DNA of 31,582 nt from Bacilli bacterium. GTDB lineage: Bacteria; Bacillota_I; Bacilli_A; RFN20; CAG-826. The translations under genes and the position numbers were made by a program. The notes under the pieces were generated by a model. The model searched no databases. It was not told where the DNA came from and saw only the letters and a list, made by a program, of their open reading frames with translations. Where the stretch lies: contig JAFVUY010000119.1 in the NCBI GenBank assembly GCA_017502465.1, positions 1-31,582 on the forward strand, read 5' to 3'. Positions 1 through 31,582 of the stretch are shown here, piece after piece (position 1 is the stretch's first letter; every line of letters starts with the position of its first letter).

Positions 1-966
1 TATGTAGAAAAAATTAATGTATATAATATTCCTCAGCATTCTCGTTATAAAGAAATATATTATGATTATTTTAATATTTCTAATTCTACAATTAGCTTAA
101 AAGATGAATATAAAGGTACTTTAAAGGGAAAAATTATTTTACCTTCTAAAGATAAAAATAATAATTATATTTATACGATAGGCGATTTTAGAGAAGGGGG
201 AGAAGGAGGAATTACTCATATTTATTTCTCTTCAGACGCTCAGTATACGACTATTGGAAAACACGCTTTCAGTGGTAATTTCAATGATGAAGGAACTTCT
301 GATGGATTTTTTAATCCAAAAATTAAGAAAATTAAATTACCTTCTACTATTACAACTATAACTGAATATGCTTTTTTCCACAATAATACTATAGAAGATA
401 TTAATTGGTCTAATTTAACTTCTTTAAAAATTATTGGAAGATAGGCATTTGGAGGATCTGGTAGCAGTAGCGGTAATAGAAGATGTTCAATCGACATCAA
501 TGGTTTACCCGAATCTTTAATAAAAATTGGCGAAAGTGCTTTTTGGAGAGCCTCTGATACAGTTAATATTACTAATATGCCAGCTTCAATGATAGAAATA
601 GGCGGTAGTGCCTTTGCTTTTGCTTCTAATGTCGCTATTACTGAATTTGGTTCTCGAAATAATAATATTTAGATGACAATTGGAAATCAAGCATTTTTTG
701 ATGCAGGTGAAAATATATCTTCTATTTCAGAAACTTTAATTTTAAATGAATCAGTTATTAAAGTAGAAGATAGTGCTTTTGCAAGCGGTGTTAATAGTAA
801 TATTTATGATAATATTAAAACTGTCTATTTGAGATATGGGGCTGAAAATTATAATGATCGAATGTTTGCGAATGAGGATGAGCCTAAATCAGCTTTCGTT
901 AATTACATTGGTTTGACAAATGTTGAAAATATTATTGATGAATAGGAAGGAGATATTGAACCATAA
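1..966 (+). CDS. BspA-type leucine-rich-repeat (TpLRR-like) surface/fibre protein, 5' partial, read through 3 in-frame TAG codons (442-444, 670-672, 943-945)
   Basis: Frame 1 is open from base 1 to TAA at 964-966 apart from the three TAGs. About 23-residue repeats carry the I-G-x-x-A-F core (IGKHAF, ITEYAF, IGR-TAG-AFGG, IGESAF, IGGSAF, IGNQAF, VEDSAF), typical of BspA/TpLRR repeats. ORF-track fragment 673..945 is part of this gene. Confidence 0.6.
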
Positions 967-1175
967 TGACACAAAAGAAAAAATTTAAATATATTGGTCT
1001 AAATGGAACTATTTTTTCTCCAGTTTTAATTCCAAAAGCTGATAAAACAGAATTTATTGAGTTAAAAGCAGATGAGGGAAAAATTCTTACTAATGGTTCT
1101 GTTTAGAAAAAGATTGTTTTGGTTTTACCAGAAAATGTTTCTAAATGGTCTGAGATTGCGGACGAATTAGAATAA
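966..1175 (+). CDS. small hypothetical protein (69 codons, 1 in-frame TAG), start overlaps upstream stop (TAATG)
   Basis: ATG at 966 in the TAATG overlap. The frame is open to TAA at 1173-1175 with one TAG at about 1104. A hairpin plus T-run follows. Confidence 0.35.
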
Positions 1176-1198
1176 TAAAATATAATAAAAATTTAAAA

Positions 1199-1250
1199 TA
1201 AAGGAGGAGAAGAGTATTTTTCTCTTCCTTTATTTTTTTAAATTGCAGAC
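1199..1250 (+). terminator. rho-independent terminator (imperfect hairpin aaggaggagaagag / ctcttcctt, then T-run)
   Basis: Inverted repeat followed by tatttttttaaa immediately after the stop of the small CDS. Confidence 0.45.
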
Positions 1251-3165
1251 AAGAAAGGATGGCTTTTTAAATATGATTACTCAAGATAATTTAAGTACTC
1301 GTGATGGTTTATATGCGAGAGCCAATGGTGTTCTATTGAATTCTGCTGTTGAAATAACAGATGCTTATGGTAATACTGGTACTGTTAAATCATTGGCAGA
1401 AAAAAGAGGATTTAATATTGGTAGCACTGAGGAAGAAAAAAAGGCAACTCATATTGATAACATTAATACTTATTTTAAATATTTAGATATTTTAGCAGCT
1501 TATGAAAATGTAGAACTAGGTAAGCTTTCTTTAGGGCAAGAGGTAGATCCAATCTCTTTTAGCTATTGGGAAAAAACCGTTAATAATGATGGAGTTATTA
1601 CTGAGGTAATAAAGAATGGTGAAGAAGAATTTTAGCCTATTTTTACTATGCTTCCCGCAGATGAACCTCGTTTTAAAGTAAATTTAAACACTAGAAGAAT
1701 TGAAATTCCTTCTGGGTTTATTGGTCAATAGGTTCAAAATGATAATTATGCAGAAACTATTTGGTTTGAAGTTGATAGATATTTTGATGCTACAGATTTA
1801 TATGCAACAGATATTTCTATTCAATGGGAAAATGGGAGAGATAAGGGTGTAACTCAAGCTTTTAATCCTATGGCTAATTTAAATATTCATTAGATTTATG
1901 GAAAAATTGTTTTTGGTTGGCCTTTAACCTCTAATATTACCAAAAATAGTGGTAATGTAAGATTTACTATTCGTTTCTATAAAGAAAGTGAAAGTACTGG
2001 AGAATGTGTTTACAATTTAACTACATTACCAATGAATTTAAAAATTAATGATGGTTTAGTAATTGAAGGTATAATGCCCACAGATGCTCATAAAGGTTTT
2101 TATGATAATTTAAAAGTAAAATCTTTCTATACTATTGTTCCTGCTGCTATGCCAGCATTAGCAGAACTTATTGCGGATGGCAAGAGTACTTCTGTAAGAG
2201 AAGGAGATTTAGAAAATGGATAGTTAAATCTTTTAGCCAGAGGCGATTTTAATGCTAGTGATAATGGCGGAAAAGGTACTTTGTCCTATGAATGGATTCG
2301 CTATATTGAAGATTCTGATGGTGATATTATTTTAGATCCTAGTTTTAAAGGAGAGGGGGTTCCTTTCTCTCATAGCAATGGAAATGAATATAATAAATTT
2401 ACCGCCAATGCTGCAGGAGCTTATGGAGTAAAAATTAGAAATTATTACGGTGGAGATACAAAATATTTTATTCCTTCTTATTATAAATTAAGTAATGGAG
2501 TTTAGGTTTATAATAGTGAGGAATTGTTTAAGATTCCTTATGCTTCTACCCCTATTTTTAAGAATGTTAATGAAAATAATTTAGAAGTATCTGTTAATGA
2601 CACTAAAGTTATTTCTTTTACTTTAGATAATGAAAAAAATTCTACTTATCAATGGCAGTATAGTAGTGATAATAGCAACTATAATGACATTGATGGTGCA
2701 AATACAACAAGTTTAACTTTTAATAGAACTACAGGGTTTAATGAAGGCTGGTATAAACTTTATGCAACTAATAATAGAAATGATAATAGTAAGAGCGCTT
2801 TAAGTGATTAGGCTTATATTGTTACTTATCCAGCTTAGCCTTATATGATTCAAAGCTTTACTGTAAATAATAAAAATATTAATGCAGGAAATGGTGTTAC
2901 TCTTATTGAATGTGCTGAAAATGAAAGTACAAGCATTACACCAAATCTCTCTGCCAACCCAAATAATATAAAAAGTTTAACCAGTTATTCAATAAAATGG
3001 TATCGTAATGATGTAGAAGTTACTAATGTAAATGGAAATACTTTAATTATAGATGATAGTGAACAAAATGGTGATGAACAAGATGGTCAATACATTTGTA
3101 GAGTAACCACTGTTTATAATGGCAATGAAACTTCTGAAGACTTTATTGTTATGATATATTTTTAA
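1243..3165 (+). CDS. large virion/fibre-like protein with C-terminal Ig-like domains, about 640 codons read through 8 in-frame TAG
   Basis: ORF-track pieces 1243..1635, 2032..2223, 2281..2505, 2524..2811 and 2845..3165 are all in frame 1 and separated only by TAG (1633, 1729, 1891, 2221, 2503, 2809, 2836). There is no TAA/TGA until TAA at 3163-3165, which is followed by AAAAGGAG. The C-terminal segments look like Ig/I-set domains (WYRNDVEV...GQYICRVTT; GWYKLYATN). ATG at 1273 with GGA upstream is an alternative start. Confidence 0.6.
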
Positions 3166-3190
3166 TATTAAATAAAAGGAGTAATGTTTT

Positions 3191-4030
3191 ATGATAACTT
3201 CACATCATGATTATAAAGCATAGCTTTATTAGTTAAATAATCCAAATCATAAGTTACAAATAACAAAACTTCCTTTAGATGAACCTTTTTATAAAATAGA
3301 TTTAAACAAAAGAACTATTTAGACTCCTGAATTTTTAAGTGTAAATTTAGACCATAATGCAGAAACAGTATTTTTTGAAGTAAATCGTTATTTTGATAAT
3401 ATTGATTTAGCGGATATGACTTGTATAATTAGTTTTACAAATGCAAATCCAAATAAAAAAGAAAATGGTTTTATTTACGCTCCACCTTTTTTAGATATTG
3501 TTACTAACCCAGGGAAAATTATTATTCCCTGGGTTATTGAAGGTCCTGCAACTTTATACCCAGGTATAATAACTTTTGCTATTCAATTTTATCATTTATC
3601 AAAAACATATAATGGAAAGACTGTTGAACAATATGAATAGTTTTATGGAGAAGGTAATCTTCCAGAATATATACGAGTAGGATAGGTTAGTCAAGACACC
3701 TTTAATTCTAAGTATCATTATTTAAGAAATGAAAAATCTGAATGTTATTATGATTCAGTTTATAATGAAGACAATATTTACTATGTAAGAAAATCTTAGG
3801 AAGAAATTAATGCTCTTGAAATTGGATATTATTATGATTATAATTTAAATACTTTACCTGTAAAAAGTAAAATTTTACATGGTATGGATGAAATTCGTAA
3901 TTTAGATAATACAAATTATAACTATGAAGTTGATACTTTGAAGGAAATTTGGGATGCCATCAACGAGATAAGAAATAGTTATGAAGATAAAAATATTTTG
4001 TATTGGATCATCCCAGAAGATGAAGAATAA
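3191..4030 (+). CDS. hypothetical fibre-associated protein (279 codons, 6 in-frame TAG), N-terminal domain paralogous to residues encoded at 1636-2031
   Basis: AAAAGGAG RBS, then ATG at 3191 (the first ATG at 3184 hits TGA at once). Frame is open to TAA TAA at 4028-4033 apart from TAGs. The segment DEPFYKIDLNKRTI-TAG-TPEFLSVNLDHNAETVFFEVNRYFDNIDL mirrors DEPRFKVNLNTRRIEIPSGFIGQ-TAG-VQNDNYAETIWFEVDRYFDATDL in the upstream gene. ORF-track 3416..3640 is a fragment. Confidence 0.5.
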
Positions 4031-4046
4031 TAAATGAGGTATTAGT

Positions 4047-4436
4047 ATGGAATGGCTTGATTTATTAAATGACATTTTTAGACTTTGTATTGTTCCTCTT
4101 TTGGCTGTTTTAACTACTTATCTAGTTAACTACATTAAAGCCAAAAGTAATGAACTTGTACAAGGCAATGAAAGTATGCTTGAAGCAAAATATATGACTA
4201 TGCTTGCGGAAACAATTACTGATTGCGTGCTTGCCACAAATCAAACTTATGTTGAAGCATTAAAAGATAAGAATGCTTTTGATGAAGAGGCATAGAAAGA
4301 AGCTTTCAGACAAACATATGAAGCAGTTCTCGCTGTATTAAGCGATGACGCAAAAGAATATTTAACTAATGCTTATGGAGATTTAACTATTTATTTAACT
4401 CAAAAAATTGAAGCAGAAGTTAATATTAATAAATGA
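4047..4436 (+). CDS. holin, Holin_LLH-like (N-terminal TM helix then charged helical tail), 1 in-frame TAG
   Basis: RBS TGAGGT precedes the ATG. N-terminal hydrophobic helix IFRLCIVPLLAVLTTYLV. The pattern QTYVEALKDKNAFDEEA-TAG-KEAFRQTYEAVLAVLSDDAKEYL...IEAEV resembles Lactobacillus phage LL-H-type holins. Ends at TGA 4434-4436 followed by a perfect terminator. Confidence 0.55.
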
Positions 4437-4446
4437 TAAAACAAAA

Positions 4447-4495
4447 ATGGGAGACACCTATATTTTTAGGTGTCTCCCATTTTTTTATTTTGCCC
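4447..4495 (+). terminator. rho-independent terminator (gggagacacc / ggtgtctccc stem, then T7)
   Basis: A 10-bp perfect inverted repeat with a 9-nt loop, followed by ttttttt. Confidence 0.75.
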
Positions 4496-4605
4496 TAGAA
4501 AAATTTTGGAAAATTTTTGGACATTCGCTGTAAATTTATTCCCAGTATTTTTCATATAATGGCGGAAGGGTTGGAAAAAATTTTACAGAAAGGAAACGTG
4601 CGCGT

Positions 4606-5007
4606 ATGTATAATCAACAAATGCCATATGGCTATTATCCGCAACCACAAAACTCTTATAGTCGTCAGCCCGCATCTACATCCTCTCAGATGATGCTAAA
4701 AGGACGTCCAGTATCATCAGTAGATGAAGTTAGAGCGACTGTAGTAGATTTTGATGGTTCAGTATTTTATTTTCCTGATATCGCAAACAAAAGAATCTAT
4801 ACAAAGTAGATTGGTTTAGATGGTTCTGCTATTTTATGTATGTATGAATTAAAAGAACTTCCTCCGGCAGAAACACCAATGATACCATCTAATTTTGTAA
4901 CAAGAGAAGAATTTGAAAGCGTTATTAATCAACTTAGGCAGGTAATGATGGCTCCACCTCAACCGGAACCTGTTCAAGAAAAACCTGCTCTAAATTTAAA
5001 TTTCTAA
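4606..5007 (+). CDS. hypothetical protein with Q/P/Y-rich N-terminus and conserved C-terminal domain (133 codons, 1 TAG)
   Basis: ORF 4606..4809 continues in frame past TAG (4807-4809) to TAA at 5005-5007. The N-terminus MYNQQMPYGYYPQPQNSYSRQP is Gln/Pro/Tyr-rich, and the layout is loosely reminiscent of spore-coat GerQ. Followed by AAAAAGGAGG. Confidence 0.4.
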
Positions 5008-5025
5008 AAAAGGAGGCAAAAATAT

Positions 5026-5268
5026 ATGATGCAAGTAAATCCTATGCAATTAATCTAGGCGATTAAAAGCGGACAGAACCCTCAGCAATTAATGCTAAGT
5101 ATTTTAGAAGGTCAAATGTCCAACACTCCCATGGGAGCAAATTTGTTAAATCTAGCAAGAAATGGAAATAGTAGAGAGATAGAACAAATTGCTCGCAATA
5201 TCTCTAAATAGCGAGGCATTGATTTTGATAAAGAATTTGCCGCCTTTCGTCAATAGTTGGGGGTTTGA
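5026..5268 (+). CDS. hypothetical small Gln-rich protein (80 codons, 3 in-frame TAG)
   Basis: AAAAAGGAGG RBS, then ATGATG at 5026. Frame is open to TGA at 5266-5268 apart from TAGs. Confidence 0.4.
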
Positions 5269-5290
5269 TAATTATTGGAGGTAAAAAATT

Positions 5291-6118
5291 ATGTTTAACA
5301 ATTCTAATGGCTATTCTTTATCTGATATCGCCGCAGTCACTGGCAACCGTTCTGGAGGAAATGGTTGGGGAGATGGCGACGGCTGGTGGATTATCCTGCT
5401 CTTCCTCTTTGCTCTTGGTGGATGGGGAAATTATGGCAACGGCTTTGGTGGCGGCGGTGGTTCTACTACTCGTGAAGAAATTGCTTACGGATTTGACATG
5501 AACGGCCTATCCAATGGCGTTCGTGGAATCCAATAGGGCTTATGTGATGGTTTCTATGCTATGAATACTGGTATGCTGAATGGCTTCGCAGGTGTTCAAA
5601 GTACATTATGCCAAGGCTTCTCTGGTGTAAATACTGCTATTTCTGACTTAGGTTATTCAACTGCAAATGCTATTAATGCTAGCACCGTAGCAGATATGTA
5701 GAACACTAATGTTATTACTGGTCAGTTAGCTGCAATGGCTGCTGATAATGCTGCTTGTTGCTGCGAAACTCAGCGTGCTATTGAACGTGGCTTCGCTGAT
5801 ACTAATTATAATCTGGCAACCCAGTCTTGCGATACTCGTCGTGCGATTGCCGATAGTACTCGCGATATTATTGATAGCAACAATGCTGGTGTTCGTTCTA
5901 TCCTAGACTTCTTAACTCAGGATAAGATTGCTTCTCTGCAAGCAGAAAACCAGACTTTAAAATTTGCTGCTTCTCAGCAAGCACAAAATAGTTACTTAGT
6001 AAGTCAGTTGCGCGAACCTTGCCCAATTCCTGCTTACTTTGTTCCAAATCCCAACTGCTGCTATGATGCCAGAGTGGTATATGGCAACAGTTGCTGCGGA
6101 AGTAATTATAACTTCTAA
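5291..6118 (+). CDS. Gly-rich, single-pass membrane, Cys-rich protein (275 codons, 2 in-frame TAG)
   Basis: ORFs 5291..5536 and 5735..6118 share a frame and are bridged only by TAGs. A GGAGG RBS is present. Gly-rich segments flank a hydrophobic helix (WWIILLFLFALGGW). The C-terminus is Cys-rich (AACCCE, NCCYDARVVYGNSCCGSNYNF). Confidence 0.5.
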
Positions 6119-6143
6119 TTGATGTAATGGAGGTTCATAAGAT

Positions 6144-6563
6144 ATGGAAATTACTGCTAATGCTTTATAGACAGTTAATGAAAATCAAAATGTACTATTT
6201 ACCGACACAGTTATTTGCGGAAGTTGCTCCATGATGCACAGAGACGGCAGTGGTCTGATTACTGTAAAAGGTATTACAGACCAGTGCCGCGCACGCTTCA
6301 AAGTAACCTTCGGCGGCAATATTGCCATTCCCGCAGGTGGCACCGTAGAAGCGATTTCACTTGCTATCTCATTAGATGGTGAGGCTATTGGAACAACTAC
6401 AATGATTGTAACTCCTGCCGCAGTAGAAGAATTTTGGAACGTATTCAGTGCTATCTTTATTGAAATTCCACGCGGTTGTTGCGCTTCTGTTGGAGTTCGT
6501 AATATCAGCACTCAGCCAATAGATGTTCAAAATGCTAATTTGATTGTAGAACGAGTAGCATAA
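6144..6563 (+). CDS. BclA C-terminal-domain-like (C1q/TNF-like jelly-roll) protein, 139 codons, 1 TAG
   Basis: GGAGGT RBS, then ATG at 6144. TAG at codon 9, then the ORF-track 6231..6563 segment. The C-terminus ...NANLIVERVA and the beta-rich, G/T/A/I-rich pattern closely resemble the C-terminal domain of Bacillus exosporium BclA (...SASIIIEKVA). Confidence 0.5.
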
Positions 6564-6576
6564 GGAGGTTTAAAGT

Positions 6577-7314
6577 ATGAGTAAAGATATGATTAAATCA
6601 ATGAAACAAACCTTAATGTGTTGCGCTCAAGGTCAAATGGGACATCTTGAAAGCGTTGATGCTAAGGAACTTGGCGAAGTAATTGATATGATTAAAGACC
6701 TTGAAGAAGCAATGTATTATTGTGTAATCGTTGAAGCGATGGAAAAAGGTGAGCAAGAAGGATAGTCTCGTTACTACCACGATCCTTATATGTATAAAGA
6801 TTGGGATCATGGTCGTATGTTCTATCCTATGAGTATCAATTATTATAGTGAAAGTGGTAAATATAATCCAGAATAGGGTGATATGAAACATTACTTCACT
6901 GAAAACGAAATGAGATATAATAATGGAACTATGTATAATGATGGAACCATGTACAGCAGAGGCCGTATGTATGCTTCCGGTGGAAATGGAGGCTCTGGCG
7001 GCGGCAGTGGTGGCAGTGGAAATGGCAATGGCTCTTCTGGAAGTCGTTATTTTCACGAATACGAAATGCCATATGATATGATGATGCGTGACCATCGTGA
7101 AGGTCAAAGCCCTATGAGTCGCCGCAGATATATGGAAGCCAAAGAAATGAAGCAGGATAAAAATACTCAATTACAGGAATTAGAAAAATATATGAAAGAA
7201 CTTTCTCATGATGTAGTTGAAATGATTGAAGATGCTTCTGCGGAAGAAAAGAAATACTTGGCAAACAAGATTTCTGCTTTGGCAACCAAGGTATCTAAAT
7301 TAGAAAATGATTAA
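6577..7314 (+). CDS. low-complexity protein (M/Y-rich repeats, GGNGGSGGGSGGSGNGNG tract, C-terminal coiled coil), 245 codons, 2 TAG
   Basis: AAGGAGG RBS. ORFs 6577..6765 and 6883..7314 share a frame and are bridged by TAG at 6763 and 6874. Repeats NGTMYNDGTMYSRGRMYASG. Ends at TAA 7312-7314, overlapping the next ATG. Confidence 0.45.
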
Positions 7315-7621
7315 TATCAATGGTGAAGATTGGAGAATCCTTTTGGCTTCTCCTCTTCATCCTTTATTATGTATGCCTAATGGCGACTATGCGATAGGGG
7401 CTTGCGATGACCCGTCAAAAACAATAGTTATAAATGAAGAACTTAATAACTATTATAGAAAAAAAGTGTTATGCCACGAATTAACTCATGCCGCAATGTT
7501 TAGTTATAATGTAGATTTAACATATGACCAAGAAGAGTTGGTAGCTGACTTGGTCGCAACATATGGGCAAGAAATAATTGGCATGACTAATTTAATATTC
7601 AAAAGATTAAAAGATAAATAA
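7307..7621 (+). CDS. small HExxH zinc-metallopeptidase-like protein (ImmA/IrrE-like fold suspected)
   Basis: 104 aa with the motif KTIVINEELNNYYRKKVLCHELTHAAMF. Translationally coupled to the upstream gene (ATGATTAA overlap). Ends at TAA 7619-7621. Confidence 0.5.
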   Translation: MININGEDWRILLASPLHPLLCMPNGDYAIGACDDPSKTIVINEELNNYYRKKVLCHELTHAAMFSYNVDLTYDQEELVADLVATYGQEIIGMTNLIFKRLKDK

Positions 7622-9743: not shown

Positions 9744-10114
9744 TTAATTACCCCCCTATCATATGGGAAGAAGTACATAACAAACACTTCATCCTCTTCG
9801 GTTTTTACCCAAATTTCAATTGCGTTCTCTCCTTCTTCAACGCTTAAAATAGAACCTATATCATGAGCACATCCAATTACTTCTTCTTCAATATTTGGAA
9901 GATTTAGGCCTAAACTACTCTGATAATCAAATAAAGTAAAATATCTTAATTCATGGCAAAGCAACATATAATATCTATTTTTTTGTTCTTCGCAAAAAGC
10001 AAGGATATTTTCTGTCGCTTCATAAAGTTCATTGTCATCAAGAGGTGTTTGCTATTTCATTATATTTTTATTTAAATCATAAAGAGTTAAGCCAGTTTCT
10101 ATTTTATTTTCCAT
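9734..10114 (-). CDS. hypothetical protein (126 codons, 1 in-frame TAG); start overlaps the nrdG stop
   Basis: ORF 9734..9967 extends upstream in frame through TAG to ATG at 10114, which is preceded by AAGGAG. It overlaps the end of nrdG (ATGGAAAATAA). A later in-frame ATG at about 10057 is an alternative start. Confidence 0.4.
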
Positions 10115-17526: not shown

Positions 17527-18651
17527 TTATTTCCTCACAATCACAACTTTACTTCTAGCACGAGTAATAGCAGTATATAGCCAGCGTGCGTGTTCTTCAC
17601 CAGTAGGCCATCTTTCTTCAAAAACAAGAACTTTATCCCATTCACTACCTTGTGCTTTATGGGTAGTAATAGCATAAGCATATGAAAAATCATATGGGCC
17701 TTCTCTTTTTCTTTTTCTCAATTGAGCTTGCTGATAACTAGTCAATGCAGGCACAGATTGAGTTAAGTACTTATAGTCAATAGGAATGTAATCAAAAGTA
17801 TCTGTGGGGTCATCATCAATAGAAACGGTTGTATATAAATGAGTAACAGGTTCTTTACAAATCCAAGGAGGAAAATATACATCCTTCTTATCCATATGAG
17901 TAATAGTTCCAATAGAACCATTGGTTAAGTCCCATTCACCTGAATTAGAACAAAATCCCCAGTGATTAGTTAAACCGATGATTTTATCACCGACACAAGG
18001 CTCAAATCCATATCCTTTAATTGCGCGGACAGTGCAATTAATTTCTTTACGTTTAGCATTGGTAGCACAAAGAATTTGGTCTGCCCATGAATACATCCCT
18101 GTATTTAAATCTTTTTCTGAAACAATCATTACTTGTTCATTTTTACAAGGAAAATCTGCTATATCCTTGCCTTCACGCACCCACATAGATAAACGAATAA
18201 TTTCACTATCTTGTGCCTGCCGCATAATCTCATCCAGAAATACGTGCGGATTATCAAGCACATGGTTATCACTATCTTTATCTACTGGGGGTAATTGACC
18301 GGGGTCGCCAGTTGCGAGAATATAAACTCCACGAGTTAGCAGAAGTTCCCACATATCTTTTGGAAGCATAGATACTTCATCTACTACAATGACTTTTAAA
18401 TGTGCGAATTCTGTTTTTGATTTCTTTACAAAAATAAATCCACTACCATCTGATTTTGGACGAGCGTGATAAAGTAATCTATGTGCGGTGGTCGCGTTAG
18501 GACATCCCTTTGCACGTAGAACAGTAGCAGCCTTACCTGTAAAAGCAACATAGCAAACTTCATTATTTTTATCAACACCCAAAGCGTCAATAATAAAGTT
18601 AATTAAAGTTGATTTACCTGTGCCAGCATTTAAGCGTAGCCAGCAATACAA
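17527..18651 (-). CDS. SF1B Dda/RecD-like DNA helicase (main body)
   Basis: Walker A AGTGKST, Walker B VIVVDEVSM, ATGDPGQLPPV, ITTHKAQGSEWDKV, LYTAITRARSKVVIV. The ORF-track start is a TTG, not an ATG. Confidence 0.8.
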   Translation of the reverse strand: MYCWLRLNAGTGKSTLINFIIDALGVDKNNEVCYVAFTGKAATVLRAKGCPNATTAHRLLYHARPKSDGSGFIFVKKSKTEFAHLKVIVVDEVSMLPKDMWELLLTRGVYILATGDPGQLPPVDKDSDNHVLDNPHVFLDEIMRQAQDSEIIRLSMWVREGKDIADFPCKNEQVMIVSEKDLNTGMYSWADQILCATNAKRKEINCTVRAIKGYGFEPCVGDKIIGLTNHWGFCSNSGEWDLTNGSIGTITHMDKKDVYFPPWICKEPVTHLYTTVSIDDDPTDTFDYIPIDYKYLTQSVPALTSYQQAQLRKRKREGPYDFSYAYAITTHKAQGSEWDKVLVFEERWPTGEEHARWLYTAITRARSKVVIVRK

Positions 18652-18722
18652 GTATAAGGTTTTCTTTCCTTGTATCTGGCTACGGCAATTTTCAATCCTT
18701 CTTCTTGCTTTTTAGTTAGCAT
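18630..18722 (-). CDS. N-terminal 30 codons of the Dda/RecD-like helicase in the -1 frame relative to 17527..18651 (frameshift, split gene or indel)
   Basis: ATG at 18722 (overlapping the HNH stop) encodes MLTKKQEEGLKIAVARYKERKPYTCIAGYA, then TAA. The Dda-like N-terminal consensus (LTEGQKNAF..I..AIKEKK..VTINGPAGTGKTT) spans this segment plus the AGTGKST of the downstream frame. Confidence 0.4.
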   Translation of the reverse strand: MLTKKQEEGLKIAVARYKERKPYTCIAGYA

Positions 18723-19233
18723 CAAGATTTACTTCCTCACTTTCTTCAAAATTTAAATCTTCAATATTCCATAAATTATCATGTAATTCTTTATGACAAT
18801 TTGAACAAATTAAAATACATTTTTTACTTTCTTCTATTGCATCTAATAATTTAAAATGGTCATTGCTTATAGTAAAATCTTTCTAAGAAGGGTCTATGTG
18901 ATGGAACTCTAATGCTTTTATGCATTTATTATAACCACATCTAACACATCTTCCGCCTCGCTGTTCTTTTATTTTTGCTAAAAACATTCCGCGAGTAAGT
19001 TGAATACCATTTGGCATACAGTCATAGCAACAAATTCGCTAACTTGCGGCGGCGCTTTTTGGAGTAAATGTTTTTCCACAAATAGGACATACTTTTTCAG
19101 AAATACCTCTTATACGACCTTTTTCAGCATATTTTTTTCTACGCGAAGCGTTTAAACATTCATTGCTACAATACTTTTTTGTAGATTTTTGTGCTTCAAA
19201 TTCTTTTCCACATATTATACATTTTACTATCAT
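18712..19233 (-). CDS. HNH endonuclease with N-terminal zinc ribbons, 173 codons, 2 in-frame TAG
   Basis: ORF 19039..19233 ends in TAG and continues in frame to TAA at 18714-18712. The continuation encodes GGRCVRCGYNKCIKALEFHHIDPS-TAG-KDF...CILICSNCHKELH (HNH core). The N-terminus has CIICGK...CSNEC and CPICGK CxxC pairs. AAGGAG RBS. Confidence 0.7.
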
Positions 19234-19341
19234 ATTTTATTTTTCTCCTTATAAAAATATTTTCTATATTATTTAAAAAATATCTTTATAATATTCGCCA
19301 GTTATACCCAAAGTTTTTTTCTAACGATATAACCGGCGAAA

Positions 19342-19584
19342 TTAATCATGTTCTCCAATTAAATCATGAAGGATATTATAAAATCGCATTTTATCTCGTT
19401 CTGCCAATTTATAAGCATTTTCAGGGTCTTTATGTTTATAACGAATTTCGTATTCAGCCTGTGCGTCACGAGCAATATTATATCTTAAACACAAACTATC
19501 ATACCCATAGCCTTTAACTTTCTTTTCAATATCTTTAAACATATATGTTAAATCATATTCTTTAATTTTTTCTGTTCTTATCAT
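19342..19584 (-). CDS. hypothetical protein (80 aa)
   Basis: Intact ORF, TAA stop, no TAG. Confidence 0.45.
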   Translation of the reverse strand: MIRTEKIKEYDLTYMFKDIEKKVKGYGYDSLCLRYNIARDAQAEYEIRYKHKDPENAYKLAERDKMRFYNILHDLIGEHD

Positions 19585-19587
19585 AAT

Positions 19588-20226
19588 TTAATATTCCTTA
19601 CTTCTTTTAATCCATCTTAAAATAGGTTCATTTTCATTATTCTTTTTATCCCATACCAGCCAGCAATATGCTTGTGCGGAACTACCCTGAGGACGATTTC
19701 CATTATGCCAGCATTGGATACGATTAACATATTGATAAATATAAGTAGGAGGATTATCTACAAAAATATTTTTATATCTACCTTCCCCTTCAAGAACCTG
19801 AGTCCGACATAAAACGACCAAATGTTCTTGGGCTATTTCCAAAGCCCGAATTAAAAAAGGTTCTAATGTAGAATAAGGTGGATTCATAATAACAATATCA
19901 GTAGATGAAATGGGGTAGTCGTCACTAAGAAAATCTAAATTATATTGAATATTACAATTAATATTATTATATCCTCTATCCTTAAAATCAGTTCCGATTA
20001 AAGTTGGAGACATATTTTGTTCTTTACAATATTCAATAATACCCTCTAACATATGGCCTCCGCCAATACAAGGTTCAAGTATTGTTTTATTATGTAAATC
20101 AATACTTAATGTATTCAAAATATTTTTAACCTCGCAAGACGGAGTGGCATAATAATCTAATTCCGCTCTTTCTTTTGAATTTTTCTTATATCCACTATAT
20201 AAACCATTTTTTGTATATTGTCCCAT
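19588..20226 (-). CDS. N6-adenine DNA methyltransferase (orphan; motif I then NPPY)
   Basis: DYYATP, ILEPCIGGGHML (AdoMet motif I), IVIMNPPY (motif IV). No adjacent restriction gene. Confidence 0.75.
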   Translation of the reverse strand: MGQYTKNGLYSGYKKNSKERAELDYYATPSCEVKNILNTLSIDLHNKTILEPCIGGGHMLEGIIEYCKEQNMSPTLIGTDFKDRGYNNINCNIQYNLDFLSDDYPISSTDIVIMNPPYSTLEPFLIRALEIAQEHLVVLCRTQVLEGEGRYKNIFVDNPPTYIYQYVNRIQCWHNGNRPQGSSAQAYCWLVWDKKNNENEPILRWIKRSKEY

Positions 20227-20259
20227 AATTCATTAAACTCCATTAGTTTTAAAATTTTT

Positions 20260-20838
20260 TCAATATATTCCAAATTCTTCATAAAAATTATAATCTTCTA
20301 CAAGTATAATTGGTTCTTCATCCCAGTCCATTGTCCATGGGTCATAAGAATTAGTCTTAATAGACTTTATTTCTTCTATATAAATGTCTTCAATCTCACT
20401 ATTTGATTCAAAAATTTCCAAATCACTTTTTTGTTTTGCCGTGTCCGCCCCAGTGAAGCCTGCTAATGCCTCAGATAATTTTCTCATGGATTCTGAAAAC
20501 TCACTTACACTTACTCCAAGAGAAAGAAAATCTCTTGTATGGTGAATAGCATTATCTATATCTGGCTCTTTATCAAATAAATAATTTGTTTGACATTCTA
20601 TTTCATCAGTGCGGCATTGAAGAGCAGCAACTTCTGTATATAATTCATTTGTTAAAGCAGGAATTTTATTTTCTATCTATTTCACTCTTACATCTAATTC
20701 CTCTATTTTTGTTTTTAGAAATTTTAGATTTTCTGAAATAGCCTTAAACTCTGCTGTAATATTTTTATCAGAAATAATAATCAACTCTTTTCGCAATTTC
20801 ATAATCTTCAATTTGAATTTGAGGACTTGTAAATCCAT
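20260..20838 (-). CDS. coiled-coil hypothetical protein (about 192 codons, 1 in-frame TAG); start uncertain
   Basis: ORFs 20677..20865 and 20260..20487 share a frame and are joined across TAG (20679-20677). The first ATG is at 20838, and the ORF-track M at 20865 is a TTG. It overlaps the RecJ-like C-terminal extension. Confidence 0.4.
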
Positions 20839-22501
20839 TAAAACTATTTTTCTAAAAAGTTCCAATAATATCTAAAACTAACATTCCATTATCTGGCGGA
20901 GTTAATTCTTCAATTTCATCCTCTTTCATAAAGAATTTTATGAAACTTATTCTATCTTGCGGGAGATCAATTCGCATAGTCTTTCCTCCTGCTCCAATGA
21001 ATCGGAGGCTAGATTTATCAAGTTTGACTCCTCTAATTGCGATGAGAGGTTCGTCAATGTTTTGTCCCCATAACTCTCGCCAATTTGCTAACTCATAAAT
21101 AAGATTTCCTGTAAGTTCACTTGCATCTAAGATGAAGTCTACTCTATATAAGCGTTCAAAAGATACTTCACTAAGTAATAAGTTAATTGTACTAACAAAA
21201 TTGGAAAAATCTTTATCAAGAACTCCTACGCCAAAAGCACCTTGATGTCCCTCCGCATACATAGTTAAATTTGTATCTGCGAGAAAATCTTTTAAATTAG
21301 GAAAATTATAACTGCGGCCAGAACCTTCCCAACTCTTAACTCCATCTCTAATCATTTCTTGTAAGATTAAAGTAGGTCTTTGATATTTCGCAGCCAACTG
21401 GTTCGCAATCAAACCAGATAGATTTTTATCAACCAATCCATTGGGAATGGGAATAATTAAAATCTTATTTTCAAGAAGATTATATTCTTCAATAATTTTA
21501 TCAATCGTTTCAAGACCTTCGTCTTGAATTCTTTTTTGTCTATTCTTTACATTTGTACTGGTGCGACCGGCCTGTTCCGCACGGGTTTCAAACTGACCTT
21601 TACATCCTCTCTTGGTAGAAGGAATCATTTCATATGCTCTAAAATCAAGCATACTTTCAAAAATCAATATCTTTTCATCATAGGAGCCAGAACGGTTAAT
21701 CGCATTAATAAAAGGTGCTACATAGAAAGCAACAGCAACAGGAGTAACTCCTCCTTCAAATTGTCTAGCATTTCTATCAACCATTTCTTTGAAAAATGGA
21801 TTTCTAATATTTAAAAGTCCTTTTTGAATTAATGCCTGTGTTTCAAAATCTCTGGAATCCATCATATCAGCAATCATCCCAAGAGAAACTAAATCTAAGA
21901 AATTGTCTGCTTCATCAATTCCCAGTAGTTCATCAATATAGCAACAGAATTTATATGCCATACCTACACCAGATAAAGATTTAGTAGGATAATCACAAAG
22001 TTGATTATTGATTACGCACGCATTTTCTGAAACCCTGGGAGCCTCATGATGGTCAATAACAAGAACATCAATGCCGGCGTCTGCAAGATTTTTGTGAATA
22101 TCAAATTCATTAGAACTAGAATCAATAGCAATTATTAATTTAGTTCCTTTTGGAATACGGTCTTCAACAATACCATGATGTTTATCTAACTAAGCCTTAT
22201 AAATAATATTGTTCTGAGCAAAATGCGGAAACAATCTATTTAAATAGTTAATAAATAACGCTGCCGAAGTAAAACCATCACAGTCACTATCTATTGGCAT
22301 ATAAACTAAACTATTTTCATTTATATGTCTTAATAGCATTTTTACACCTGTTTCAATATTAGCAACTCTACTAGGAGCAATAATATCAGCATCACTAAGA
22401 TTTAAAAAATGCTAAATATTTTCCCTTTTGATTCCTCTATTTAAAAGAACCTATTCAATCATTGTAGGTTCTGTTTGTTTTGAAATCAATTCATATCTCA
22501 T
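20768..22501 (-). CDS. DHH-family phosphoesterase, RecJ-like ssDNA exonuclease; about 577 codons, 4 in-frame TAG
   Basis: ORF 20852..21961 extends upstream through 3 TAGs (22453, 22414, about 22190). That adds DHH motif I (IDSDCDGFTSAAL) and motif III (LVIDHHEA) plus an RGI-type N-terminus (VLLNRGIKRENI). The DHHA1-like domain (GHQGAFGV, NRSGS) lies in the reported ORF. The reported 'stop' at 20854-20852 is TAG, and the frame continues 28 codons to TGA at 20770-20768. Start is ATG 22501 or 22462. Confidence 0.65.
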
Positions 22502-22817
22502 TCATACTTTCCCCAATAAAAAATCTATATGCTGAAAAAGGTCCAACGCACATGCAACGCATAATTACACTATCAATAAAATCAAAAGGAATACCGTGTT
22601 GAATATAAGATATATTGCATCTTTCTCCTCTGGCTGATTCATGGGCAAGTCTTACTTTCCAAATATCTCCATTGTCAAAGAAAACCATAGGAGACATACT
22701 ATACCAGCACTCTTTTTCAACATTAACACCCCAGTATTTATATGATTCAATCATCCGTCGCAATTGAGCCTTTCCATCTTCGGTTTTCAAACACCAAATT
22801 ACGCCTTTAATTTTCAT
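22491..22817 (-). CDS. hypothetical protein (108 aa)
   Basis: Intact ORF, TGA stop, no TAG. Confidence 0.45.
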   Translation of the reverse strand: MKIKGVIWCLKTEDGKAQLRRMIESYKYWGVNVEKECWYSMSPMVFFDNGDIWKVRLAHESARGERCNISYIQHGIPFDFIDSVIMRCMCVGPFSAYRFFIGESMNEI

Positions 22818-22849
22818 AAATATACTCTTTCTTTAAATAATTTTAATTT

Positions 22850-23587
22850 TTATAATACTATATAATTAGAAGTATTAAGCATGAGGTCAGAAATACATAA
22901 AGTATTTAACTTTGTATATGGTATTCTAATAATTGGTATGTTATGTTTTTTGCACCAACTATTTTTATATTCATCATGTTGTTGTGTTATTAGAAAATTT
23001 TCTTTAGTATTCCATGTGTGAGGATTACTTTTATAATAATAATGTTGCTCGCCATCATATTCAATAATATAAGAATTATTTACATAAAAATCAAATTTAG
23101 CATAATAATTACTATCCTAAAATTTACAATTATCAAAAATTTTTTGTTCTTCAAATGGAATATTCTCAGATTCTAATAAACTTTTGATAAGAACTTCGCC
23201 TTTAGATTTCATGCAACCACAAGAAGATACTTTTCCTTGCTAAAGGTCATGAGTATTAACTTCACACCAGTTTCCACAATCACATAAGCACTTCCAAATT
23301 ACTCTACCGTCATTGCTGCGTTTATTTGTTTTTTCTTTTGCTATTAATTTACCAAACCTCTAATCAATAAGATTTAAAGTCTAACGAGCAATATTATTTT
23401 CTATTAATATAGATTTTTTATAACATCCACAACTTTTAGTTTTTCCATTTTTTAATCCATCACTGCGAATTAATTTTTCTACTCCACACTAACATCTGCA
23501 ATTCCAATAAATTTTATTATTTTTTTTAATCGGGCCATCAATCACTGTAAAATAATTAAAAACTTGACCTATTAAATTTTCAGCCAT
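22850..23587 (-). CDS. homing-endonuclease-like protein: two Zn-finger modules (WxCxCxCG...SCGC) plus PD-(D/E)XK/Vsr-like nuclease domain; 245 codons, 5 in-frame TAG
   Basis: Minus-strand frame from ATG 23587 (RBS GAAAGGAAAGGTGAT) to TAA 22852-22850. Repeats: FNYFTVIDGP..IYWNCRC-TAG-CGVEKLIRSDGLKNGKTKSCGC and RFGKLIAKE..VIWKCLCDCGNWCEV..GKVSSCGC. The C-terminus has DFYV...IIEYDGEQHY. The ORF finder missed it entirely. Confidence 0.55.
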
Positions 23588-31082: not shown

Positions 31083-31367
31083 TTACTCCTTATTCATAGT
31101 AAAACCAATAAATTTATCTGCGTTAGGGATAATATATTTTACATATTTATCCAAATCATCAATTACATAAGGGGTATCATCCAGCAGGTCAGGTTCATAT
31201 GCTAAATCTTCATAACTGTAAAATCTTACACCAGAAATGCCATATGCGTGTGCTTTTTCCTGCATTGCTCTTGGATTAGAACATACAACAGCAGCACCCA
31301 CCATTTTAGCATACTTAATTAACTTTTGAGTCTTTCCGCTACCTACGGACTCAATAATCTTATACAT
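31083..31367 (-). CDS. small P-loop-containing hypothetical protein (94 aa)
   Basis: ESVGSGKTQKL Walker-A-like segment near the N-terminus. Too short for a complete kinase, so it is possibly a fragment. Confidence 0.35.
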   Translation of the reverse strand: MYKIIESVGSGKTQKLIKYAKMVGAAVVCSNPRAMQEKAHAYGISGVRFYSYEDLAYEPDLLDDTPYVIDDLDKYVKYIIPNADKFIGFTMNKE

Positions 31368-31377
31368 AATATACTCC

Positions 31378-31582
31378 TTATTTTATACTATATCCAAATT
31401 CTTTTGCTTTATAAAAATTCTGCCAATAATCTTCTCGTTCATTTAATTGAGAACGGTCACATTCTTCAATAATTTCAAATGAAAAATTTTCTACTCCAAT
31501 AGACAACATAGCAGGATAAAGTTTATTGCGGGTTAGAGGCTCTGCTCCTATACCTCGCTTGATATGTTGCTTCCAACGGTCC
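31378..31582 (-). CDS. GIY-YIG homing-endonuclease-like protein, C-terminal part only (start lies beyond the window end)
   Basis: Open minus-strand frame to TAA 31380-31378. It encodes ...RWKQHIKRG...LYPAMLSIGVENFSFEIIEECDRSQLNEREDYWQNFYKAKEFGYSIK, which matches the second half of the GIY-YIG catalytic domain (R..H...N...E; Seg/I-TevI-like). Confidence 0.55.
   Translation of the reverse strand, partial: DRWKQHIKRGIGAEPLTRNKLYPAMLSIGVENFSFEIIEECDRSQLNEREDYWQNFYKAKEFGYSIK

Follow-up and report, generated by a model that had tools for sequence, protein, structure and literature searches.

The stretch of DNA analysed here, called the window in the following, comprises 31,582 nucleotides (nt) of contig JAFVUY010000119.1 (assembly GCA_017502465.1), which was deposited as a Bacilli bacterium. 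It is derived from a phage that uses TAG as a sense codon, encodes a DnaE-type polymerase and possesses a replication module with two free-standing homing-endonuclease genes. One of these, an HNH gene, forms one end of a mobile cassette (about 0.72 kb), which is located at the 5' end of a gene for a RecD2/Dda-like helicase. The cassette is composed of a leader, the HNH open reading frame (ORF), its own copy of helicase codons 1–30 and a terminal insertion of 8 nt, which interrupts the codons of the helicase P-loop. The following features were assigned to this locus:

18723–19341, minus strand: inserted segment of the cassette, from the stop codon of gene g80 to the helicase ATG, consisting of a 108-nt leader with a Shine-Dalgarno sequence and the HNH ORF
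18712–19233, minus strand: HNH homing-endonuclease gene, 173 amino acids (aa), in-frame TAG codons at positions 65 and 116
18633–18722, minus strand: cassette-borne helicase codons 1–30 (MLTKKQEEGLKIAVARYKERKPYTCIAGYA), ending at the putative take-off Ala codon GCT (18635–18633)
18633–18686, minus strand: RNA hairpin, minimum free energy (MFE) −22.8 kcal/mol, z about −5.5
18625–18632, minus strand: 8-nt insertion TAAATGCT, which splits the Walker A sequence (GYA/GTGKS) between the Ala and the Gly codon
17527–18624, minus strand: helicase body, 365 codons from GGC ACA GGT AAA TCA (GTGKS), RecD2/Dda-like helicase of superfamily 1B (SF1B)

If the standard code is applied, TAG codons disrupt the minus-strand ORFs at 18712–19233 and 22850–23587; if TAG is taken as a sense codon, ORFs of 173 aa and 245 aa result, and long genes are obtained throughout the window. 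A first-pass annotation of this DNA had described the ORF at 18712–19233 as an HNH gene with zinc ribbons, and this could be confirmed. The ORF matches HNH-endonuclease families of PHROG with E-values down to 4e-22 and reaches 19.1 bits with the Pfam HNH model, just below the cutoff of 21.4 bits. An FHH...N..H motif and two zinc-binding CxxC pairs are kept in all HNH homologues, and opposite the two TAG codons of the window gene, several homologues have Gln and others Lys or Asn. For the nucleases of the window, neither a PDB sequence search nor NCBIfam yielded a match. Relatives of the HNH protein in cultured phages share at most 46% identity, and none of them was seen in the context found here. 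Judged by its sequence, the gene appears to be a genuine homing-endonuclease gene, which is present in some relatives and absent from others.

In the list of ORFs, the helicase begins at a TTG (18651), merely nine codons 5' of the AGTGKS sequence. The gene really begins with the ATG at 18722, and this start overlaps the stop codon of the HNH gene by 11 nt (ATGCTAACTAA). This ATG opens a frame of 30 codons ending at a TAA (18632–18630), and the helicase body (GTGKSTL...) resumes 8 nt later in a different frame. The insertion is made up of this TAA, the dinucleotide AT and a candidate landing codon GCT (18627–18625). For comparison, 80 related loci were retrieved from IMG/VR by helicase similarity (L-numbers denote loci). 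HNH-less relatives read ...ISGYAGTGKST... without interruption, for example in the L006 or L045 allele (GGGTACGCAGGTACTGGTAAG), and in L006 the stop codon of the g80 homologue overlaps the helicase ATG directly. If the gap is skipped, the predicted junction peptide of the window helicase is PYTCIAGYAGTGK, and the resulting protein matches the NCBIfam RecD2 model with an E-value of 2.5e-34. The host genes had previously been regarded as untouched by the nuclease genes; this does not apply to the helicase beside the HNH gene, whose P-loop codons contain a stop-containing insertion of 8 nt. An exact 40-mer spanning the interruption was found in seven retrieved loci from at least five samples. A sequencing or assembly error as the cause of the insertion was ruled out by this recurring 40-mer and by the many divergent alleles.

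A catalogue of the insertions comprises 21 distinct sequences of 5, 6, 7, 8, 10 or 11 nt, each of which opens with TAA, TGA or TAG directly after the Ala codon; the exception is L079, where the stop comes after a Gly codon, two positions further on. Deletion of the insertion in silico restored GYAGxGK[ST] in every allele. In 12 of the 21 types, including the window (GCT...GCT), the insertion has GCN or a match to the take-off codon (GGT in L079) as its final triplet; in the remaining nine, this triplet is GTN (five types) or ACY (four types), each one transition away from GCN. Five alleles of 6 nt are in frame (e.g. GCC TAA GCA) and can therefore not be rescued by frameshifting. In L160 and L079, the opening stop is TAG (GCC TAG GTA and GGT TAG GT, respectively). 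Should these phages, too, decode TAG as Gln at a late stage of infection, the way in which the gap is decoded could change in the course of infection. Public gene calls fragment the helicase into an ORF of 280 aa (L135, 15219–16061) or into ORFs of 30 aa and 374 aa (L145, 1339–1431 and 1410–2534), so that automated annotation hides the interruption and the gene is an annotation trap. A further observation concerns L015, in which the P-loop of the same helicase contains an intein-like insertion at about 9900–10040 (...IVTHN/TTLVNF). Mobile elements of different kinds thus seem to have a hot spot in the P-loop codons.

The presence of the HNH gene and the interruption of the helicase are tightly linked. 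In the helicase-based sample of 80 loci, all five distinct HNH-bearing alleles were interrupted in comparison to 3 of 52 HNH-less alleles (Fisher p = 1.3e-5; such p-values overstate the independence of the alleles, which are phylogenetically related). An independent scan of metagenome contigs, which was based on the HNH gene, gave interrupted helicases in 12 of 12 cases, and a pattern scan of IMG/VR yielded 28 distinct interrupted alleles. A stop-led insertion of 5–11 nt is carried by all of the at least 25 HNH-bearing alleles examined, while the HNH gene is missing from all 49 distinct uninterrupted alleles; among the alleles examined, it was never seen beside an intact P-loop. Interrupted alleles without the HNH gene exist as well, and the L052 group keeps only about the last 20 nt of it.

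The HNH genes are 62–74% identical (52% in one divergent group) and occur in at least six helicase lineages, which share at most 64% identity with each other. The gene is present in L081 and absent from L045, although the helicase bodies of these loci are 99% identical, and the same applies to L039 and L047 (98%). These pairs and the incongruence with the helicase lineages bear out the earlier suggestion that the HNH gene is mobile. When the window was compared to HNH-bearing loci, the nucleotide identity amounted to about 50% upstream, 71–91% in the HNH gene, 68–78% in the first 90 nt of the helicase gene, 64–73% just after the insertion and 53–60% in the helicase body.

The extent of the cassette became visible in one species-level cluster, in which HNH-containing genomes (L081, L039, L021, L082 and L084) were compared to genomes without HNH gene (L045, L047, L058 and L038). 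They differ in a 641-nt block reaching from the upstream gene to the helicase ATG, in many substitutions confined to helicase codons 1–30, and in the insertion of 7–8 nt itself; 3' of the insertion, they are nearly identical. The cassette of L021 ends with ...GGC TAC GCC TAA AT and is followed by the resident GCA GGA ACT, so that the Ala codon is duplicated across the stop. In L091, a leftover of the original helicase 5' end (MILTNKQEQGLHIAIERYSHNEAWTCIGGY...; 3447–3644) is located 1.03 kb upstream of the cassette-borne copy. This displaced end stops exactly after GGT TAT (Gly-Tyr), where it is fused to unrelated sequence, which places the cassette junction in the P-loop codons.

Directly at the take-off codon, the transcript can fold into the hairpin listed above. 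Its basal stem is formed by GUAGCCAG (18683–18676) and CUGGCUAC (18643–18636), its upper stem by AUACAAG and CUUGUAU, and two extra pairs use the G and the C of the take-off codon. The 3' arm (CUGGCUAC) corresponds to the codons just 5' of the take-off codon. Upper stems vary in sequence and register among the lineages, and a single consensus structure for the upper stem was tried without success. Because of these different registers, folding was performed allele by allele on the 57 nt ending at the take-off codon. All interrupted alleles showed MFE values from −18 to −27 kcal/mol (z from −2.7 to −6.3), whereas the 49 distinct uninterrupted alleles ranged from −2.2 to −18.3 kcal/mol (mean −7.9; mean z −0.14; Mann-Whitney U = 0, p about 1e-6). 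The hairpin is thus found in every interrupted allele and is essentially absent from the uninterrupted ones. Changes in the basal stem are compensated (GTAGCC/GGCTAC, GAAGCC/GGCTTC, GTAACC/GGTTAC and ATAGCC/GGCTAT). In an alignment of 19 sequences, 90% of the cells pair in comparison to 17–47% in slid controls, and double changes were seen at five pairs. The stem arises through differences from HNH-less siblings, which are for the most part synonymous.

The helicase encoded behind the insertion is maintained. All 25 complete downstream helicase ORFs of interrupted alleles are intact (350–386 codons), and the ratio of nonsynonymous to synonymous substitution rates (dN/dS) between close interrupted alleles is 0.004–0.18 (dS 0.06–0.6). 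Purifying selection on the downstream ORF is strong. The insertion has also survived in lineages from which the HNH gene has been lost. Separate initiation of translation at the helicase body, in the window from the TTG at 18651, was excluded because several alleles (L021, L035 and L053) lack a start codon for the body in its frame. Transcriptional slippage was also rejected, as no long homopolymer run is present.

Starting from the cassette structure, the linkage of HNH gene and insertion, the hairpin and the selection on the downstream ORF, all of which were observed in this analysis, we infer which sequence the HNH enzyme cleaves, that the insertion confers immunity and that bypass occurs in preference to other forms of recoding. 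Probably, the locus is a homing cassette with a self-immunity insertion that ribosomes bypass during translation. The HNH enzyme would cut uninterrupted helicase alleles at the conserved P-loop coding sequence, and repair of the cut would copy the cassette in. In the genome of the carrier, the insertion would destroy the cut target and provide self-immunity. During translation, a ribosome at GCT with the TAA in its A site would leave the take-off codon, slide by 8 nt onto the second GCT and continue at GGC, by which GYAGTGKS would be restored. The slide may be aided by refolding of the hairpin, the 3' arm of which extends up to and partly into the take-off codon. All gap lengths would be covered by one bypass mechanism of this kind, whereas frameshifting would need events that differ between alleles.

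A comparable arrangement is the MobA HNH element of T4-like phages, whose insertion shields the carrier from nicking by MobA; some lineages lost the nuclease and kept the bypass (10.1101/2022.08.31.505936). The 50-nt bypass of gene 60 is described there with reference to Bonocora et al. 2011 (as cited in 10.1101/2022.08.31.505936). For gene 60, pairing of the mRNA leaving the ribosome was proposed as forward driver of the bypass (10.1101/2024.12.09.627546). By analogy, we propose that the hairpin of the window is placed to drive ribosomes over a few nt. In both systems, the HNH gene directly adjoins the interrupted target ORF on its 5' side, and the start of this ORF overlaps the nuclease ORF out of frame (by 11 nt here and by 8–32 nt with MobA). 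Both elements bring along their own version of the adjoining codons of the target, which resembles the local host lineage, both non-coding insertions open with a stop right after the take-off codon, and both elements end at or near the landing codon. Some lineages without the nuclease retain the insertion in either case. The differences are likewise distinct: the target is the P-loop of a RecD2/Dda-like helicase instead of topoisomerase II, the gap measures 5–11 nt instead of 50 nt, and neither a conserved stem-loop in the gap nor an evident nascent-peptide signal is found. Furthermore, since no more than 30 codons are replaced by the cassette, the target is not divided into two proteins, and the carriers are TAG-recoded phages from gut and other metagenomes in contrast to T4-like phages of Proteobacteria. 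The cassette has no demonstrated sequence relationship to MobA. Considering the short gap, the helicase target and the missing gene 60 signals, the helicase cassette is regarded as an analogue of the MobA/gene 60 system and not as a member of it.

Synthetic 'stop-hops' in E. coli, in which a stop stands between matching codons and 9 nt specify a single residue, were summarized in a review to which no natural in-frame case was known (PMC5009743). The alleles GCC TAA GCA (L042) and GCC TGA GCA (L167) have exactly this configuration, and the window allele is similar with 5 nt between the matched codons. Stop-hops were engineered and are of low efficiency, whereas the helicase alleles are natural, conserved and equipped with a dedicated hairpin. 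In collaborative homing, as with F-CphI and the psbA intron, immunity is reportedly provided by a separate insertion in the target. The putative immunity insertion described here would differ in being a few nt that the ribosome has to handle, and not an intron or intein. Intronless homing of the T4 Seg and Mob type also combines a nuclease gene beside its target with sporadic distribution and co-conversion of the flanks (PMC2988022). Short mobile inserts in coding sequences, which are skipped in translation, are known as 'byps' from the mitochondria of Magnusiomyces capitatus (PMC5009743). These resemble the helicase insertions in being short, mobile and apparently skipped, and differ in that they are not linked to a nuclease gene. 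With 27–55 nt, byps belong to a mitochondrial setting.

No description of a helicase-linked bypass was found in the literature searched. Bypassing in gene 60 was an isolated case for decades. All natural bypass cassettes of this kind known so far are derived from MobA and topoisomerase (10.1101/2022.08.31.505936). In our estimation, the chances are even that the helicase cassette represents a second, independently evolved natural programmed bypass, that is, a minimal 'stop-hop' of 5–11 nt over a nuclease-immunity insertion in a helicase P-loop, which would be driven mainly by refolding of the 5' hairpin with the take-off codon in it and would move with the HNH gene.

Allele-specific conventional recoding has to be considered as well. 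It would consist of −1 or +2 frameshifts for gaps of 5, 8 and 11 nt, +1 frameshifts for gaps of 7 and 10 nt and readthrough for gaps of 6 nt, and would yield helicases with 1–3 extra residues in or before the P-loop. Such products are conceivable, as some of them would fit the loose pattern [AG]xxxxGK[ST] (e.g. GYA-KV-GTGKS), and the nine insertion types without a cognate landing triplet are easier to reconcile with this explanation than with a slide between matched codons. A stop in the A site and an upstream RNA structure are, moreover, known stimulators of frameshifting (PMC5009743). We nevertheless consider conventional recoding unlikely, because it demands three different mechanisms at one homologous site, with a shift of +2/−1, +1 or 0 depending on the allele. 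Neither a conserved slippery heptamer (X XXY YYZ) nor a +1 site of the CUU-UGA type is present, the peptidyl-tRNA(Ala) cannot re-pair at −1 or +1, and the GYAGxGK[ST] sequence, which is found in all 49 uninterrupted alleles and thus family-wide, is restored only by complete skipping.

Still less probable is that no recoding takes place and that the insertion is a repair scar, which knocks out or splits a dispensable helicase. The fragments seen by gene callers would agree with this, as would the non-essential Dda of T4. However, the intact downstream ORFs, their low dN/dS, the missing start codons in the frame of the body and the retention of the insertion after loss of the HNH gene contradict a dead gene, and random scars would not give stop-led insertions beside a covarying hairpin. 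Removal of the insertion from the RNA by cleavage and ligation or by hairpin-guided editing, followed by conventional translation, is very improbable. It would find a conserved RNA- or single-strand-level feature in the adjoining hairpin, but the invariable stop at the first position of the insertion fits a translational pause and not RNA processing; no Rfam family matches in the window, and to our knowledge no system excises 5–11 nt from bacterial or phage mRNA. Equally small is the probability of the plain reading in the first-pass annotation, according to which three unrelated, free-standing homing-endonuclease genes are placed, as in T4, between host genes that are intact. The sporadic distribution of the HNH gene and of the second nuclease gene (22850–23587) is compatible with it, whereas the helicase beside the HNH gene is interrupted in every HNH-bearing genome, and the third gene, of the GIY-YIG type, is syntenically conserved and of non-Seg architecture.

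Several points weigh against translational bypass of a self-immunity insertion and have to be set against its merits. Its main weakness is that 9 of the 21 insertion types end with GTN or ACY and not with a cognate landing triplet. In gene 60, a matched landing codon is needed for high bypass efficiency. The Ala landing codon itself may be a mere relic of the recombination junction. In addition, the gap is far shorter than that of gene 60, and a conserved nascent-peptide signal or a stem-loop in the gap is missing. The uninterrupted, HNH-less allele of L063 forms a strong hairpin in helicase codons 12–30 (−18.3 kcal/mol, z −4.1); this allele may be a revertant without insertion, or a precursor. 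Since Dda is dispensable in T4, a weakly expressed helicase might be tolerated. The relatedness of the alleles tempers the statistics of the linkage, and the case for bypass is built from nucleotide sequences.

Beside the HNH cassette, three further features at the loci discussed in the first-pass annotation were investigated:

22850–23587, minus strand: Vsr-fold (EDxHD-type) homing-endonuclease gene, 245 aa with five TAG codons, two zinc modules and a nuclease domain
31083–31367, minus strand: 94-aa P-loop protein (GSGKT), full-length member of a small phage protein family
31378–31582, minus strand: 3' end of a GIY-YIG gene of 343 aa, which extends about 830 nt past the end of the window (L135, 1179–2210)

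The Vsr-fold gene begins 77 nt after the primase gene, and a distance of 75–77 nt was found at this site in all carriers. Its product belongs to a family of about 4900 proteins with two invariant W-C-C-C-G...S-C-G-C modules, which are followed by a nuclease domain with the invariant residues D166, E176, D178, H182, D205 and K208. The closest relatives (L001–L012) lack the gene between primase and RecJ, and L079, L149 and L151–153 have it at this site; paralogues were detected at five further intergenic positions, and of the two loci L013 and L014 one contains the gene and the other does not. Both the invariant residues and this distribution agree with the former description as a mobile gene for a Vsr-like nuclease with a double zinc finger. 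The protein resembles I-Bth0305I in its invariant acidic and His residues and in the context of phage replication genes. It differs in that its gene is free-standing and not intron-encoded, in its two N-terminal zinc modules and in the motif E-x-D-G-x-x-H. The gene behaves like any free-standing homing gene of the ordinary kind and is linked to the primase gene at its 3' end.

The GIY-YIG gene was recovered in full length from L135, a metagenome contig of 63.6 kb in the European Nucleotide Archive (ENA), which is identical to the window in 18731 of 18733 compared nt. A GIY-YIG domain was predicted correctly (Pfam E = 2e-9), but the proposed Seg-like character was not retained: the domain is C-terminal (residues 254–335 of 343) and is preceded by a hydrophobic segment at the N-terminus and a coiled coil that spans about 200 aa. 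The identification as a Seg-type gene was rejected, as neither the layout of an N-terminal GIY-YIG domain with C-terminal DNA-binding part nor a sporadic presence was found. Each of the 19 loci with 2 kb or more of sequence to the left of the YorF-like gene contains a homologue at this position, which disagrees with a mobile homing gene; of the three homing-endonuclease genes proposed, the HNH and the Vsr-fold gene remain. The GIY-YIG protein is a conserved syntenic component of this phage group with an unusual architecture of membrane anchor and coiled coil. The neighbouring 94-aa protein had been suspected to be a gene truncated by such an insertion. It matches PHROG 1828, a profile of 109 positions, and two of its three homologues are complete ORFs of 94–97 codons (L042 and L012), while the third runs off the end of its contig. 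A truncated kinase at this position was ruled out by these complete homologues of 94 and 97 codons.

TAG codons are distributed unevenly in the window. In the plus-strand block (577–7621), 27 TAG codons occur per 2266 codons. On the minus strand (8187–31582 compared), the HNH and the Vsr-fold gene together contain 7 in 418 codons in comparison to 9 in 6397 codons of the other, replication-related genes, a 12-fold higher density (Fisher p = 2e-5), and the complete GIY-YIG gene contains 7 in 343 codons, all seven of which lie in the coiled-coil part. The nuclease-type genes are thus TAG-dense, as had been noticed before. It may be speculated that the TAG codons in the nuclease genes hint at a full-length nuclease being formed only once a suppressor of the phage is active. 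Neither a suppressor tRNA nor any other tRNA gene was found in the window, and a scan for sigma-70 promoters remained at background (36 hits, 32 expected).

A megablast search with 18.6 kb of the window gave no match among GenBank phages, and no cultured phage is close to it at the DNA level. The nearest relatives of the DnaE-type polymerase protein, with about 40% identity, are found in Enterococcus and SPbeta-type phages. The 80 loci share the gene order ThyA, DHFR, g121, YorF-like, AAA24, g188, DnaB, g108b, primase, (g108), RecJ, a variable stretch, helicase, PolIII, Gmk-like, g743 and g164. A DNA methyltransferase gene (19588–20226, minus strand) lies between RecJ and helicase in the window; homologues were detected in 2 of the 80 loci, in both of which the gene is located between helicase and polymerase instead. 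The interval between RecJ and helicase appears from these comparisons to be a variable region. The polymerase, DnaB and AAA24 genes of the window contain no intron or intein, as they align with those of relatives from end to end. In relatives, insertions of about 1 kb divide the PolIII, DnaB and AAA24 genes (L003, 9691–10820; L015, 2113–3206 and 3760–4790; L013, 1559–2622, absent in L014), and L028 and L055 are also split, at PolIII codon 440/442. These insertions are likely introns or inteins, because some of them contain GIY-YIG genes. A related phage-like contig of 60.5 kb (L154, CAMELE010000010.1) carries a 5-nt allele (TAACT) and belongs to a metagenome-assembled genome labelled 'uncultured Mollicutes', a label that is a weak hint at the host.

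Nuclease genes among replication genes are ordinary in themselves; it is the linked recoding site, missed in the first-pass annotation, that deserves interest. If translational bypass applies, this phage group would provide a second bypass family with more than 20 natural gap variants, both frame-shifting and in-frame, together with natural variants of the hairpin, and would include the first natural in-frame stop-hop alleles. With a length of about 110 nt, the site would be an easily cloned test bed for the minimal needs of codon departure and downstream resumption. The combination of a homing nuclease with an insertion that would be skipped by the ribosome suggests a recurring way in which mobile elements may hit conserved catalytic motifs while the gene is spared.

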